From Candidatus Iainarchaeum sp. (GTDB taxonomy: Archaea; Iainarchaeota; Iainarchaeia; Iainarchaeales; VGJJ01), in the NCBI GenBank assembly GCA_030688545.1, contig JAUYHT010000006.1:120001-152000 (forward strand): a stretch of DNA of 32,000 bases, written 5' to 3'. Positions within the stretch are counted from its first letter, which is position 1, and the number at the start of each line of letters is the position of its first letter. Below the pieces are notes generated by a model that saw only the letters and a list, made by a program, of their open reading frames with translations, searched no databases and had not been told where the DNA came from. A program made the translations under genes and the position numbers. Below are positions 25,725 through 32,000 of this stretch, piece by piece.

Positions 25725-28700
25725 TCATTGCGTGGGCGCGCCCACGCAGGTTTGTCCTGCCACAAGATTATTGGTCAATGCGCTGATGCTCGTCTGGGCC
25801 GTCTGCTTGTACAATTTCTCCGGATTCCAGAAGAATTGGGCTTTTACCCCGGAATCCGCCAGGCAAATGGTCTGATCCGCCACCAGGTCAAAGACATCCT
25901 GCAACGAATCAATGGTGGTGCTGGCATTGTTGTAGGGGAGAGTGGTAATTCCATCCAGGGATACCGCGTTGGAGGGGGTCGCATGATTGCTCGTGATAAA
26001 TTGTACATTCCCCTGCGTCGCCTGCATCGCATAATCCGCTTGGGTGGGGGTATAGAAAATGGTGCGCAGGAACTCATTCCCTCCCACGCGGGCGTTTTCC
26101 CAATCCAATCCATACGTGAAGGGGAATGCCGTCACCCGATCCTCCGGGGTGGCGACGCGGTCGGGGGTGAAATTAAACCGCTCCCATACCGGGACACCCG
26201 TATAATCATAGCAGTTTCCCGCCCCCTCCCAGAATGTCAAATTATTTCCCGTCTGCACGGGCGCACCCTCCTTGGACAACTGGTAAAATATGGAGAATGG
26301 TTCCGTGCTCGCGGCATGATTAATCTTCATCATCAGCGGGGTCGCCAGGGATGGAGTGAAAACCAATCGTTGCGCGGTGTTCCCTCCCGGAGCCACTACT
26401 TCCAACACACTTCCCCGCGTGGAGGGCAAACTATTCATCTGCCGGATATCATCATTCCGCTCCACCGTCAATTTGGCCAGGGCCGTGCTCCCCTCTCCCG
26501 AATGGGTCTGCTCCAGCCCATCATTCACCCGAATGGGGGGCGTTCCCTGGTTGATGAATTCCAACCCGTACCCCACCCGGTCATATCGTGTATTCTGCAA
26601 CCCCACCCCCCCGTCGAAGGGGAGTTTGTAGAACGGACTATTGGGGCTGGGGTTCTCCAGATGATAGAAGTCCACCCCCACACTTGCATTTGGGCTCCCA
26701 TTGGCATCGAATAACGTCCAATCTTCCCCGAAGAACACCGACACATCCACGGTATATTTTCCGGGGGCAGGGAGGGTGGTGTCACTGAAATATTTGTTGC
26801 TGAACCCTAATCTATCGTCGCTCCCGTAATAGGCCGCCAGACCAAATGTCCCCTGGCTCCCGGTGAACCACGAGGGGGCGTCCGCAAAGGAGGTGTTCAC
26901 ATAATACTCACGGAAATCCGATTCGAAATCCGCCGAGTACCCATCTCGGATGAGGTAGGCCTCAAAATGGAACAATTCATTGAGCGTCTGAACATCCGGG
27001 ATGCGGGATGTGAATTGAACGTTCGCGTTCACATGTTGGCCGAACACCGGATCATCCTTGTCTATCCACCGGTTGATGGCCGGCTTCCCCCCCAGAATAG
27101 CCGTCGTCTTGGGGAGCGTCTCGCAGGTTCCCAGGGCCGCATCCGAATAGCTCGCCACATCAATCCCCACAACATTGTTCGAAAAAGCGATGTTGGCGGT
27201 GGTGGTGCTCGTGAGATCGAAGCGCGTGCTGTAAAAATGAGGCAACACCCCCGATAGGGAGCACTCGATTCGCTGTGCGGTCCCGGCGGGAATAGTTGCA
27301 TTGTTCCCGCAGGTCAGAGTCGGGGGATTAATCCCCCCCGAACCAATACCTTCTGCATCCTGGGGGGTCATCGTTCCATTAAACCCAACATCCTGCGTTA
27401 TCGTCGTATTGTTCTGCACCACCCCGTGCAGCGTAATGGAATCCACGGAATCAAAGCGATACCCCGTCTCCGTGAATCCAATGAATCCTTCCGGCACCGT
27501 GTCCTGGTTGGCAAAACTCCCATCTCCCGGTTGAGCGTGGGGGTTGTCGGGGCAGGCGAATGAAAAGGTGTTCACCGATAGGAATTCCTGGAAGGCATTC
27601 ACCCGTTTCATCAAATCGATATTGAATTGGGTGGCATCGCAGAAAATGGATTGGTCATTCCCCGCGTCGCACGCATAGAGGGGAATGCCCGTGGTGTCAT
27701 TCCAGTTCCACGTGAGGGCGATTCGGGGCAGAGTGCCTTTCCCCGTCTGCCCCAATGTGTTGCCGCTCACACAGGCCACGCTGTCGAATTGCAAGGGAGG
27801 GAGAGACTGGTTGATATCTTGCGTCCTGAATTTGAGATGAAATTTCTCCTCCCTCACCCTATCTTCCGCGGGGGAACAATTCCCCTGACCCGGGGAAGGA
27901 CCGATTCGAAGGTTCCCAAAATTCCCATTGCGGCATTCCACGGATGCCCGGCCCGCGTGGGCAAAATCCCCGTGGATGTGTTCCAATGCGCGCAGGGAAA
28001 CCGTACCGAACAATGGATTAGGATTAGTATACCCGGATACATTGGTGAAAACCACTCCCGCTTGCTGGAAGGTATCCTCTCCCTTCGAGATCAAACCCGC
28101 GGCATCCAGTGCCCATTCTCCTGTGATATGATCTCGTACGTTAGGCGAAAGACGTATATCAATGGCATCCGGGGGAAGCGCTTGCTGGTCCGATCCCCCT
28201 GTGAGGTTGATGATGTAATCCATGAGCGTTTCCGTTTGATCCTTGTCGCATTCGTCCTCGAACAATGAATACAGCACGGCAATGGCTACAATGACGGCGG
28301 CGCAGGGAGCGCATATGCTGGCAGCGTACTTGGCCGCTATGATATAGGTAATAGCCCCCGCTCCGGCCGCCGCCCCCACATTCTGATAGGCTTTGGCGGA
28401 TGCTTTCCCCCCAAACAAAGGATGAATGTCCACCCAGAACTTGGGATCCCAGGGCACCCCATCATACACATCCTTCCAATCACAGATACTGGCCTTCACA
28501 CGTACCTGTTCGAGGAACAGCCTATTCAGTACCGTGGTGGCGTCTTTGGCATCCTGCTGGTAGAGGCTGAATCCTCCCTTGTCTAATTCGAACGCATAAC
28601 TCAAGTCGCTATCCACTTGTACTTCCAGCGCGGCCACCCGTTTGTAGCTCGTTCCCGGCACCCGCGCATCCACTGTCAAATCATACGTCCCGGGCAGCGT

Positions 28701-31700: not shown

Positions 31701-32000
31701 GTGGGAAACAGTAAGCAAAAAAGGTCCTTCTTCGTCCAGGGGGAATGATAATGTCCCCTCCTGGGTGGGGGTGGTTTGACTCACAACGACTTTGTTGTCC
31801 GACTTCCTAACGACATTAACCGTGGCATTGGGCAGGTAGGCCAGGGACACTTTGTCCTGCACGCGCACTAATAGCGTGCCCTGGATGGCCCGTCCCATCG
31901 TTAACGTGAGGGGGATAATCTGGTTGACCGGGATAGAAATATTTTCGCTCGTGGAGGTAGCAAATCTTCCTCCCGGATCGCTGCCACTCACGTATACTAA
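25725..32000 (-). CDS. Giant (>2088 aa; N-terminus outside the window) beta-rich, sequon-rich, Cys-containing putative cell-surface protein with a central hydrophobic hairpin
   Basis: The frame stays open to the right window edge (codons upstream of the track's GTG are sense codons). The N-terminal part has at least three carboxypeptidase-regulatory-like/Ig-like modules (e.g. GTLLVRVQD...PNATVNVV...EGTLSF...LLTVSHPDY; GRVTIHVQDEDGFPVDNAQVLLYD...TDANGNAAFTGVQSGSYFARA). A central hydrophobic stretch, VGAAAGAGAITYIIAAKYAASICAPCAAVIVAIAVLYSLF, maps to nt 28260-28378. There are more than 20 N-x-S/T sequons and many Cys residues. Confidence 0.8.
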   Translation of the reverse strand, partial: LVYVSGSDPGGRFATSTSENISIPVNQIIPLTLTMGRAIQGTLLVRVQDKVSLAYLPNATVNVVRKSDNKVVVSQTTPTQEGTLSFPLDEEGPFLLTVSHPDYLSETQDIGLIQMGMPTIVFGMEKLTPQNSGRVTIHVQDEDGFPVDNAQVLLYDAASSFIAHQYPVRTTDANGNAAFTGVQSGSYFARATKYPAGPSDSPIFTSDTRAATQAGITLRLGTGTLEVSVMDLEGQPIPFATVEFLTDGTDECVAGACQVQTDSVGKVSQSFKADRKVFVRVGASGFATYASMSHQLYPGETKNIVVRLPTTILGDTPFIRLKEVRNPLTQTRANELKAGKTYTLVLEWSIPTPLTNLDKAGIHIRVGDEAFLENDVLAILSLNTPNGHVVKGTTYQPSLGFDDDAQNLTFGEAKWANAEWDNPGPGVYEIGVDVRISPQAGALTSLPIYYRGWAIRGSEWLRDPYDSALGTSASIPGKEGQYAETYHQIYFQGKPIVCDDLFCFSGEQLFNENDQLLVEGPPFTTQVNKSYDYSFVITSTSPTLYADPKLRVFIANDGFIPSGEVQLTGYEVVGTDGRVLRSTGLATNDVPGGEGQGLSVGTLEQYQTISGKVELLTKQDKATQIKVQLINEGEIVFEHTAGISIGKSGELRVTVDPSMAAAFIPTTFAITVTDDKGFDVQDAMVTLLKIDPSKHQQIISRQFTDIAGKTSLIGPPSLPRTRLVFDAVKAGLASQPITIIVDENVAFFDPATLSFQMPLTGDAEQFLPLRITNKTQQTLILMDARITGDFQGLLANGEMQNFVQQYANVTVIAPLETKTIQVKAATTPSAASFTGQTLRGSLLLTFATQDTQQRWVQQVPMTIALNVVGACDGEAIQFTGAPATGKIDTTAFDNKNQTQFQISNICLVDGQPYTLQNLKAKIVWTSNPIGNVELSTTDIGGSSQSSETLRSNAFVPLFGSFKPAEDTVYASVMTFTPFPQNIGNTAEFTIIIGAEIGSGNARRTIEKSFDVRVQITNLETCIVLDPEPERGIRIESEEDEARFTINTTNCGDVPVDILFCAGANNSNCSGGAPEGRLYLSQFSITDLKGSREITVERRGGTLPGTYDLTVDARVPGTSYKRVAALEVQVDSDLSYAFELDKGGFSLYQQDAKDATTVLNRLFLEQVRVKASICDWKDVYDGVPWDPKFWVDIHPLFGGKASAKAYQNVGAAAGAGAITYIIAAKYAASICAPCAAVIVAIAVLYSLFEDECDKDQTETLMDYIINLTGGSDQQALPPDAIDIRLSPNVRDHITGEWALDAAGLISKGEDTFQQAGVVFTNVSGYTNPNPLFGTVSLRALEHIHGDFAHAGRASVECRNGNFGNLRIGPSPGQGNCSPAEDRVREEKFHLKFRTQDINQSLPPLQFDSVACVSGNTLGQTGKGTLPRIALTWNWNDTTGIPLYACDAGNDQSIFCDATQFNIDLMKRVNAFQEFLSVNTFSFACPDNPHAQPGDGSFANQDTVPEGFIGFTETGYRFDSVDSITLHGVVQNNTTITQDVGFNGTMTPQDAEGIGSGGINPPTLTCGNNATIPAGTAQRIECSLSGVLPHFYSTRFDLTSTTTANIAFSNNVVGIDVASYSDAALGTCETLPKTTAILGGKPAINRWIDKDDPVFGQHVNANVQFTSRIPDVQTLNELFHFEAYLIRDGYSADFESDFREYYVNTSFADAPSWFTGSQGTFGLAAYYGSDDRLGFSNKYFSDTTLPAPGKYTVDVSVFFGEDWTLFDANGSPNASVGVDFYHLENPSPNSPFYKLPFDGGVGLQNTRYDRVGYGLEFINQGTPPIRVNDGLEQTHSGEGSTALAKLTVERNDDIRQMNSLPSTRGSVLEVVAPGGNTAQRLVFTPSLATPLMMKINHAASTEPFSIFYQLSKEGAPVQTGNNLTFWEGAGNCYDYTGVPVWERFNFTPDRVATPEDRVTAFPFTYGLDWENARVGGNEFLRTIFYTPTQADYAMQATQGNVQFITSNHATPSNAVSLDGITTLPYNNASTTIDSLQDVFDLVADQTICLADSGVKAQFFWNPEKLYKQTAQTSISALTNNLVAGQTCVGAPTQ

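Follow-up and report, generated by a model that had tools for sequence, protein, structure and literature searches.

The DNA analyzed here (referred to as the window) is a 32,000-nucleotide (nt) stretch of Candidatus Iainarchaeum sp. contig JAUYHT010000006.1 (assembly GCA_030688545.1, positions 120,001 to 152,000). Its last 6.3 kb are occupied by the 3′ part of a giant minus-strand gene, whose product, the giant protein, is the subject of this work. Two genes encoding small membrane proteins, named A and B, lie directly downstream of it. The features of the region are summarized in Table 1.

The original prediction, made from the sequence alone, described a single uninterrupted frame running off the end of the window, and this is indeed the case: 2,091 codons are open up to the TGA at nt 25725-25727. 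The 5′ 864 nt of the gene, encoding 288 amino acids (aa), fall outside the window. As the prediction had advised, the full open reading frame (ORF) was retrieved; it lies on an independent public Logan contig (L004), which was located through the exact sequence of the small gene at 25248-25655 and is 100% identical to the window across 16,753 bp. The complete gene (L004:2792-9931) encodes 2,379 aa, and visible residues 1-2091 correspond to full-length residues 289-2379 (visible residue i is full-length residue i+288). Residue numbers below are those of the visible chain, unless the full-length protein is named.

A chimeric assembly, or a pseudogene fusing two genes at the hydrophobic stretch described below, was considered as a source of such a long frame, and nothing was found in its favour. 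Besides the identical independent assembly, a third contig fragment (P0151) spans the loop, the order of modules is common to 16 collinear full-length homologs and hundreds of further relatives, and the guanine-cytosine content is even along the gene (0.51-0.56). On these grounds the frame is not a chimera, and the probability of an artefact is negligible.

Table 1. Positions of the giant gene, its distinguished segments and other genes within the window.
Feature	Position (nt)	Strand	Basis or remarks
Giant gene, 3′ 6.3 kb	25725..32000	(-)	open frame, no stop before TGA 25725-25727
Prealbumin/Ig-like β-sandwich modules CarboxypepD_reg, Big_1, SpaA (visible aa ~115-285)	31146..31658	(-)	Pfam PF13620, E=2.5e-17, 3 stretches
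Loop between Cys1173 (in CDW) and Cys1251 (in E/D-x-C-D), probably stapled by a disulfide	28248..28484	(-)	20-sequence alignment
Helix 1, NVGAAAGAGAITYIIAAKYAA, glycine/alanine (G/A)-rich, marginally hydrophobic	28320..28382	(-)	Hessa sum ~+5; six small-xxx-small motifs
Helix 2, ICAPCAAVIVAIAVLYSLF, transmembrane (TM)-grade, CAPC at start (nt 28302-28313)	28260..28316	(-)	Kyte-Doolittle peak 2.46; Hessa sum -0.1
C-terminal ~840-aa module: β-sandwich domains, then conserved ~490-aa domain	25728..28247	(-)	12 near-invariant Cys, 4 conserved sequon positions; profile search
Small membrane protein A, 135 aa, ~3 hydrophobic segments, basic tail	25248..25655	(-)	69 nt downstream of giant gene
Small membrane protein B, 153 aa, weak paralog of A	24783..25244	(-)	3 nt downstream of A
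GT28C (Alg13-like)-GT2 fusion	316-1722	(-)	
GT4/AglH-like	2186-3235	(-)	
S-adenosylmethionine (SAM) methyltransferase	3297-4082	(+)	
AglB/STT3	4043-6241	(-)	
Further GT2	13052-14059	(+)	

Domain organization of the giant protein

The N-terminus, hidden from the window, reads MGVRTFYHRLEDQWYALLDRLEGYVPVYKVIDPIDEKIPS and is followed by a strong TM segment (full-length sequence of L004). Among 103 full-length members of the family, 101 have such an N-terminal TM anchor; it starts at a median position of aa 41, after a recognisably conserved head of about 40 aa, and reaches Hessa sums of -1 to -7. These and all other insertion scores are simple sums of the Hessa biological hydrophobicity scale, a crude measure and not a trained topology predictor. 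The conserved head is cytoplasmic and the anchor holds the chain in the membrane.

The original prediction placed the only strongly hydrophobic stretch in the middle of the chain, at nt 28260-28378, which as a helical hairpin would make it a central membrane staple. In a Kyte-Doolittle scan (19-mer, threshold 1.6) one region only of the visible chain passed, aa 1219-1251 (peak 2.46); it matches this stretch, which is TM-like by crude hydrophobicity scales. The first claim thus stands for the visible chain but not for the full protein, and the N-terminal anchor removes the role of sole staple. The absence of a C-terminal anchor was foreseen correctly: the chain ends with ...GQTCVGAPTQ, and no hydrophobic segment, anchor or PGF motif was found at this end by translation and the Kyte-Doolittle scan.

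The carboxypeptidase-regulatory/Ig-like modules suspected near the start of the visible chain were recognized by Pfam at the positions given in Table 1, and in the full protein five CarboxypepD_reg stretches lie within the first ~570 aa. The anchor and the loop are separated by about 1,430 aa of β-sandwich domains. The remaining ~1,800 visible aa, in which no motif had been named, have no Pfam match, and a sequence search of the whole protein against PDB chains gave no match at E≤1. Neither internal repeats in the protein (self-BLAST) nor tandem repeats in the DNA (TRF) were detected.

The two mainly β-sandwich halves of the protein are joined at a Cys-bracketed loop with a TM-grade helical hairpin. 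This loop of 79 aa opens with a W/F/D/K-rich lead-in, after which come helix 1, a turn of one residue, helix 2 and EDE-Cys. Two short helices, the second carrying a CxxC, had been proposed for this segment, which agrees with a G/A-rich NVGAAAGAGAITYIIAAKYAA followed by ICAPCAAVIVAIAVLYSLF with its CAPC. Helix 2 has 19 residues and ends at EDE-Cys1251; a Lys occupies the turn of the hairpin, and the outer flanks are acidic. In the homologs the Hessa sum of helix 2 (-1.8 to +1.2) stays in the insertion-competent range, and helix 1 (+1.9 to +7.0) keeps its G/A-rich character.

Both bracketing cysteines are invariant in 19 of 19 homologs (20-sequence alignment). Across the family, 81 representatives could be scored: 74 have the two residues, 5 lack both, and 2 have one without the other (Fisher p=8e-7). 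Since they are kept or lost together, Cys1173 and Cys1251 probably form a disulfide closing the base of the loop.

Predicted structure of the C-terminal module

The loop and its flanks (visible aa 1001-2091; 1,091 aa) were modelled with AlphaFold2 on the 20-sequence alignment, with a mean pLDDT of 75 and a pTM of 0.69. The model places β-sandwich domains on both sides of the loop, followed by a long helix at FCDATQFNIDLMKRV..., another sandwich and a mixed α/β C-terminal region. Within the loop (model residues 180-249) pLDDT falls below 50; helices are drawn at 217-224 and 231-247 (the latter equals visible aa 1231-1247) and are not packed on the protein body.

Foldseek searches of this model against PDB and BFVD returned only generic Ig-like, ASH/MSP and MG strings with a TM-score of at most 0.14, including those of hydin, TRAPPII, α2-macroglobulins, integrins and the Haloferax S-layer protein 7ptp. 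When the last 492 aa were modelled alone, pLDDT was 72, exceeding 90 in the final ~240 aa. No PDB entry matched this isolated region at E≤0.001 in Foldseek (best E=0.014); weak matches to flavivirus E, lipase and lipoxygenase folds were dismissed as noise. We treat the C-terminal ~490 aa, as modelled, as a new conserved domain to which no PDB structure is related.

The first domain after the loop contains a group of near-invariant residues (H1341, D1345, H1348 and G1350, in the motif EHIHGDxxHxG) and an invariant H1388 (visible aa 1341-1388; window ~27835-27979, minus strand). Judged from this conservation, these residues may constitute a metal-binding or catalytic site close to the membrane.

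Family distribution and variability of the loop

The first search identified 16 full-length homologs of 2,231-2,390 aa (40-58% identity, 90-100% coverage) and a fragment of 1,456 aa (54%), as well as more distant homologs, all from Diapherotrites/Iainarchaeia metagenome-assembled genomes (MAGs). When the post-loop half (alignment A2) served as the query of an exhaustive profile search, 719 cluster representatives were obtained at E≤1e-3, of which 476 reached E≤1e-30. Most full-length representatives have 2,200-3,250 aa, and the module is almost always C-terminal. A scan of one genome per species confirmed 209 loci; the best 80 of these nearly all carry the title Candidatus Iainarchaeum or uncultured archaeon, including Ca. 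Iainarchaeum andersonii.

Judging by these searches, the family is unnamed and essentially restricted to Iainarchaeota/Diapherotrites. One of the representatives looked up (P0084) is labelled Micrarchaeota. Three loci of the Iainarchaeota type (L009, L067 and L068) were deposited within Thaumarchaeota or Chloroflexi MAGs and are probably mis-binned contigs. Where members are named in databases, the label is "carboxypeptidase regulatory-like domain-containing protein" or simply "hypothetical". The literature searched contained no description of this family. A match to a well-described family, which the original prediction had named as evidence against it, was not obtained. The giant protein has every family trait tested, i.e. 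the C-terminal module, the N-terminal head and anchor, the Cys-bracketed loop, and A and B downstream.

Across the family, the length of the loop ranges from 21 to about 500 aa. In 82 representatives both flanking modules could be anchored, and their loops were assigned to four types: 36 have one or more strongly hydrophobic segments, 10 are marginally hydrophobic, 9 have no hydrophobic segment, and 27 have an insert of 150-500 aa between two G/A-rich segments. Several loops of the third type are rich in Trp or other aromatic residues, e.g. CFWGKDGKLDWWGDIWDDWDC (P0019) and DWSILWEGIGGYWILHDFDFDAAWDAFWDLF. A Cx2-3C motif at the start of the hydrophobic helix occurs in 17 of 35 hydrophobic loops vs 2 of 21 non-hydrophobic ones (p=0.003). 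The long inserts have an even number of Cys in 22 of 27 cases and carry 8.6 sequons per 1,000 aa, vs 10.5 in the rest of those proteins; from these features they look extracellular.

It is unusual for a surface protein to have a conserved loop, closed by a disulfide, that is filled by a TM-grade hairpin in some members and by Trp-rich peptides or helical inserts in others. Different loop types coexist in one cell, as a single genome (L002:10001-24211) encodes the hairpin-type P0003, the Trp/Asp-loop P0015 and, upstream of them, a long-insert paralog.

Topology and glycosylation

The visible chain contains 25 N-x-S/T sequons (x not P), consistent with the previous count of more than 20. Their density (12 per 1,000 aa) compares with 0-8 per 1,000 aa in 13 other proteins of the window. 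Composition alone would give 16.5 +/- 3.7 sequons, a modest difference (z=2.3). Density is highest in the C-terminal half, with 17.9 per 1,000 aa. Seven positions are kept in at least 60% of the 20 homologs, three before the loop (N407, N773 and N1067) and four after it (N1320, N1530, N1943 and N2025). Furthermore, 24 of 26 Cys are near-invariant and spread across both halves. The glycosylation machinery mentioned in the original prediction is present (AglB, the GT4 protein and the GT28C-GT2 fusion; Table 1); window positions 316-6241 represent an N-glycosylation gene cluster.

Two arrangements of the halves had been contrasted, a hairpin with both of them outside and a single span. In the latter, helix 2 would act as a stop-transfer and the C-terminal ~840 aa would be cytoplasmic, like the post-TM part of SPEARE, a giant protein of Nanohaloarchaeota. 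It agrees with helix 2 being the only clearly TM-grade segment, since helix 1 is marginal, and SPEARE shows that a giant DPANN protein can have a late TM segment and a large cytoplasmic part (PMC6642349). However, the bracketing cysteines co-vary, which implies a disulfide over the loop, and homologous C-terminal halves are also found behind loops that lack a TM-grade segment. Moreover, this half, with its 12 near-invariant Cys, 4 conserved sequon positions and the top sequon density, folds in the model as β-sandwich domains without enzyme domains. A single span is therefore very improbable.

Relatives without a TM segment in the loop have the same two halves, so in them the loop and both flanks must be on one side of the membrane, and the extracellular-looking inserts make the loop an external excursion in the relatives that carry them. 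Together with the co-varying bracketing cysteines and the conservation of Cys and sequons on both sides of the loop, this favours the hairpin arrangement preferred in the original prediction. Both halves are very probably extracellular and disulfide-bonded, and probably N-glycosylated by the AglB pathway encoded nearby, as far as can be judged from sequence features.

Small membrane proteins A and B and genomic context

In 61 of 82 loci the giant gene is directly followed by gene A on the same strand, and B is present in 59, always just after A; in most of the other 21 loci a further ORF longer than 1,000 aa or the end of the contig comes next. Thus, of the two elements whose conservation in related genomes had been put forward for checking, the downstream small membrane genes are widely kept, but the hairpin is not universal (36 of 82 loops are strongly hydrophobic). 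An overlapping ORF of 137 aa (25315-25728, minus strand) was rejected as spurious, because only the 25248-25655 frame is conserved elsewhere.

A and B share 32-36% identity over ~78 aa. Within the hydrophobic core of A (~90 aa, three segments), D20, H40 and D86 are invariant and K26 is near-invariant; such polar residues suggest an active or ion-binding site rather than a passive anchor. B has no equivalents of D20 and H40. Homologs of A are hypothetical proteins of ~104-196 aa, almost all from Diapherotrites or unclassified-archaeon MAGs; one JGI homolog carries the name of a glycosyltransferase, which is evidently wrong. Neither A nor B has a Pfam or NCBIfam match (Pfam hits at E≤5 are chance-level only), and NCBIfam revealed nothing meaningful for the giant protein, A, B or the 351-aa ORF upstream (see below).

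In two-chain toxins and viral glycoproteins, nicking classically takes place in loops bracketed by a disulfide. By analogy, the chain could be cut in or near the hairpin, possibly by A or B, to give two disulfide-linked subunits, the second held by helix 2. The invariant D20, H40 and D86 inside the hydrophobic core of A and the tight linkage of A and B to the giant genes would fit such processing. On the other hand, neither small protein has a protease family signature (Pfam, NCBIfam), no conserved cleavage motif is evident in the loop alignment, and A and B adjoin giant genes with all loop types. We regard cleavage as improbable.

Four loci (L001-L004) share the same gene order, namely giant gene(s), A, B, TrmB, GluRS, (PALP), Lon, L12/L10/L1. 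Upstream in L001 and L004 there is a second, distant giant paralog with a long-insert loop (24-27% identity in two blocks), and L002 carries three giant genes in a row, in which the hairpin-type P0003 is directly followed by the Trp/Asp-loop P0015. Neither a fixed order of loop types within the tandem arrays nor a link between loop type and the adjacency of A and B could be upheld, as no association was found.

Between giant paralogs there are strongly basic, low-complexity ORFs: L004:1654-2709 (351 aa), L001:6465-7934 (388 and 92 aa) and L002:7158-9964 (165, 484 and 238 aa). TM segments are absent from these ORFs, and their length is poorly conserved between genomes. Those of them that are called as genes have no precomputed Pfam family, and the 351-aa one has no NCBIfam match either. 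A TATA-like sequence, CTTTATATA, is located at L004:2741-2749, ~45 nt upstream of the ATG of the giant gene. The 69-nt spacer between the giant gene and A (window 25656-25724) contains a T-rich tract, TTTTCTTTTTAT, so A and B may have their own promoter, or the giant gene an oligo-T terminator.

Elsewhere in the window, the "Lon" protein of 769 aa (17709-20018, minus strand) has the Lon_C protease domain as its sole Pfam match, at aa 96-209 and thus close to the N-terminus, and the ~560 aa that follow have none; this architecture (768-796 aa) is kept in L001, L003 and L004, unlike that of standard archaeal LonB, in which the protease domain is C-terminal. In the TBP ORF (6668-7459, minus strand; 263 aa) the TBP repeats begin at aa 49, which points to an N-terminal extension or an over-long start call. 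A 343-aa ORF (10031-11062, minus strand) beside FtsZ (11114-12331, plus strand) has no Pfam family.

Placement of the hairpin and role of the protein

We propose that the product is an envelope glycoprotein of 2,379 aa with two membrane tethers, the N-terminal anchor and the hairpin; the chances of this explanation being right seem about even. The Cys-closed loop, here a tight helical hairpin made of a G/A-rich packing helix and a 19-residue TM-grade helix, would dip from outside into the cell's own membrane and return, thereby acting as a second tether. The N-terminal half would then become a closed arch, and the C-terminal module would be presented near the surface. The giant protein, its tandem paralogs and A and B would act jointly as a core cell-coat or envelope assembly.

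The hydrophobicity of helix 2, its length of 19 residues, the acidic end with the outer Cys, the Lys at the turn and the G/A packing surface give moderate support to a membrane-embedded hairpin, most simply in the cell's own membrane. The same helices could instead form a hydrophobic hairpin buried in a homo- or hetero-oligomer interface, e.g. with the tandem paralogs, as an element of coat assembly and not a tether. Tandem paralogs suggest hetero-oligomers, and small-xxx-small motifs favour tight helix packing in any environment. In addition, in the 27 of 82 relatives with long inserts both segments are marginally hydrophobic and flank a large extracellular-looking domain, so the ancestral element may have been a stalk-like helical pair outside the membrane. 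Helix 2 is, however, as hydrophobic as bona fide TM helices, has the exact membrane-spanning length and an acidic outer end, and a segment this hydrophobic is expected to partition into the bilayer during Sec translocation. Burial in an oligomer is thus rather unlikely.

The membrane entered might also be that of another cell. Here the loop would be kept out of the cell's own membrane and inserted into that of a partner or host, with the N-terminal anchor and ~1,430 aa of β-sandwich domains serving as a stalk between the two cells. The giant N-anchored arrays and A and B would then constitute an intercellular apparatus, in which the hairpin or Trp-rich loop attaches, opens or fuses the partner membrane. 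A disulfide-closed loop with a hydrophobic tip has the geometry of internal fusion loops, and class I fusion peptides are G/A-rich, as is helix 1. Most loop variants are membrane-active in character (G/A and hydrophobic hairpins, Trp/Phe/Asp-rich loops, G/A-rich amphipathic flanks), and AlphaFold2 leaves the loop unpacked from the protein body. DPANN archaea are mostly ectosymbionts (PMC11329633), but Iainarchaeota have been argued to be possibly free-living (PMC10936187).

Further findings stand against insertion in trans. No fusogen fold was detected (flavivirus E, at E=0.1-0.5 and with a probability of at most 0.02, is noise), there is no C-terminal TM anchor and no evidence of heptad repeats, and the evolutionary rate (see below) is housekeeping-like, not arms-race-like. 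A water-exposed, 19-residue TM-grade helix would also need shielding, and nothing points to any. We consider such a device, and with it the intercellular apparatus, unlikely, as neither fold nor rate nor known lifestyle lends it positive support; if real, it would be an archaeal cell-cell fusion or bridging machine with a fold unrelated to known fusogens.

Several observations also weigh against a protein tethered twice in its own membrane. The second strongly hydrophobic segment is found in only about a third of full-length members, which means that a second tether is not essential to the function of the family. By its Hessa sum (+2 to +7), helix 1 would not insert by itself, which on sequence grounds still leaves room for a stop-transfer at helix 2. 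The presence of A and B is independent of the loop type of the adjacent giant gene, so a specific interaction between the hairpin and these proteins is unsupported. Fold searches gave only generic Ig-like strings, and none for the C-terminal domain, and the envelope role is consequently argued from context and evolutionary rate. Hairpins placed in the cell's own membrane, in that of a partner or within an oligomer are all compatible with the evidence.

The rate was estimated by comparing the genome of the window with those of two relatives. The giant proteins are 56% and 54% identical, and the corresponding values are 56/56 for Lon, 56/57 for TrmB, 65/62 for GluRS and 66/65 for L10. By this comparison the gene is under strong purifying selection over 2,400 aa. 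Such a housekeeping rate, combined with phylum-wide synteny, is more in line with a core component of the envelope than with an adhesin that evolves fast, and the host contact mentioned in the original prediction is not supported. Synteny, conservation and rate weakly support a core coat or envelope role shared with the paralogs and A and B.

Iainarchaeota (Diapherotrites) have, to our knowledge, no cultured member, and we know of no information on their envelope or their contact with other cells. A locus with two or three paralogs of 2,300-3,200 aa and two lineage-specific membrane proteins takes up ~1-2% of a ~1-Mb genome, which makes it the foremost candidate for a cell coat or contact apparatus in this phylum. 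The family offers a concrete, testable entry point to the envelope of an uncultured phylum.

Comparison with known systems

Archaeal S-layer and cell-coat glycoproteins (Haloferax volcanii csg, 7ptp) are the closest systems by function. Like them, the giant protein is a membrane-tethered string of β-sandwich domains with sequons and an AglB pathway encoded nearby, and it is the product of a core, slowly evolving, lineage-wide gene; 7ptp was matched by fold at E=1e-6. In contrast to the Haloferax protein, it is ~3x larger, has a hydrophobic hairpin in mid-chain and contains many conserved Cys. The S-layer layout of a cleaved signal peptide and a C-terminal TM/PGF-CTERM segment is replaced by a TM segment from ~aa 41 after a conserved head, and S-layer signatures (TIGR01564/TIGR01567/MSTP-like, Pfam S-layer) were absent at E≤0.01 in Pfam and NCBIfam. 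S-layer proteins of other DPANN phyla, e.g. Micrarchaeota, are of ~100 kDa and of the TIGR01564/01567 type (bioRxiv 10.1101/2021.04.28.441871; 10.1101/2024.05.28.596244); the Micrarchaeota protein was accordingly rejected as a relative, since it belongs to a different family.

SPEARE proteins combine serine protease, laminin-G and type III restriction-enzyme domains and have a TM segment near the C-terminus with a cytoplasmic enzymatic part (PMC6642349). The giant protein resembles them as a very large, mostly extracytoplasmic, membrane-anchored DPANN protein that takes a noticeable share of a ~1-Mb genome. Unlike SPEARE, it has no protease, laminin-G or restriction domains (Pfam), its post-hairpin half looks extracellular, and there is no sequence relationship.

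Viral internal fusion loops and the hairpins of pore-forming colicins and diphtheria toxin also place, midway in a large soluble ectodomain, either a hydrophobic, G/A- or Trp-rich element in a loop with a basal disulfide or a hydrophobic two-helix hairpin in acidic surroundings. There is no similarity in fold or sequence to these, and the giant protein has its own N-terminal TM anchor. With class I/II/III fusogens, including fusexins, it shares a Cys-bracketed, hydrophobic or aromatic loop but not the C-terminal TM anchor, and Foldseek searches for a fusogen fold in PDB and BFVD returned only generic Ig-like strings. The c subunit of F/V-type ATPases similarly consists of a G/A-rich small-xxx-small helix, a short polar turn and a more hydrophobic second helix. 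These subunits are small autonomous ring formers, whereas the hairpin interrupts an ectodomain of 2,379 aa, and many relatives lack it.

Long surface chains of MG- or Ig-like β-sandwiches are typical for bacterial α2-macroglobulin-like proteins and giant adhesins (SiiE, Lap/RTX, Bap). Fold matches to the α2-macroglobulin family had E ~1e-6, but with TM-scores of at most 0.14 these and the Ig-like matches reflect generic domain strings only, and bMG3 scored below the Pfam cut-off (30 vs 34.9 bits). Unlike α2-macroglobulins, the giant protein has no thioester motif (C[GLA]EQ searched) and no helical thioester domain in the models; unlike the repeat-type adhesins Bap, SiiE and RTX, it has no near-identical tandem repeats and no type I secretion system or RTX features.

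The giant protein is thus unrelated to SPEARE, α2-macroglobulins, repeat-type adhesins and known fusogens. No description of a mid-chain, disulfide-stapled, length-variable and membrane-active loop, of the C-terminal domain or of the A and B partner genes was found in the literature searched, and we know of none. In kind it is a giant archaeal surface glycoprotein, a known class; the stapled loop, the C-terminal domain and the partner genes A and B are what is new.

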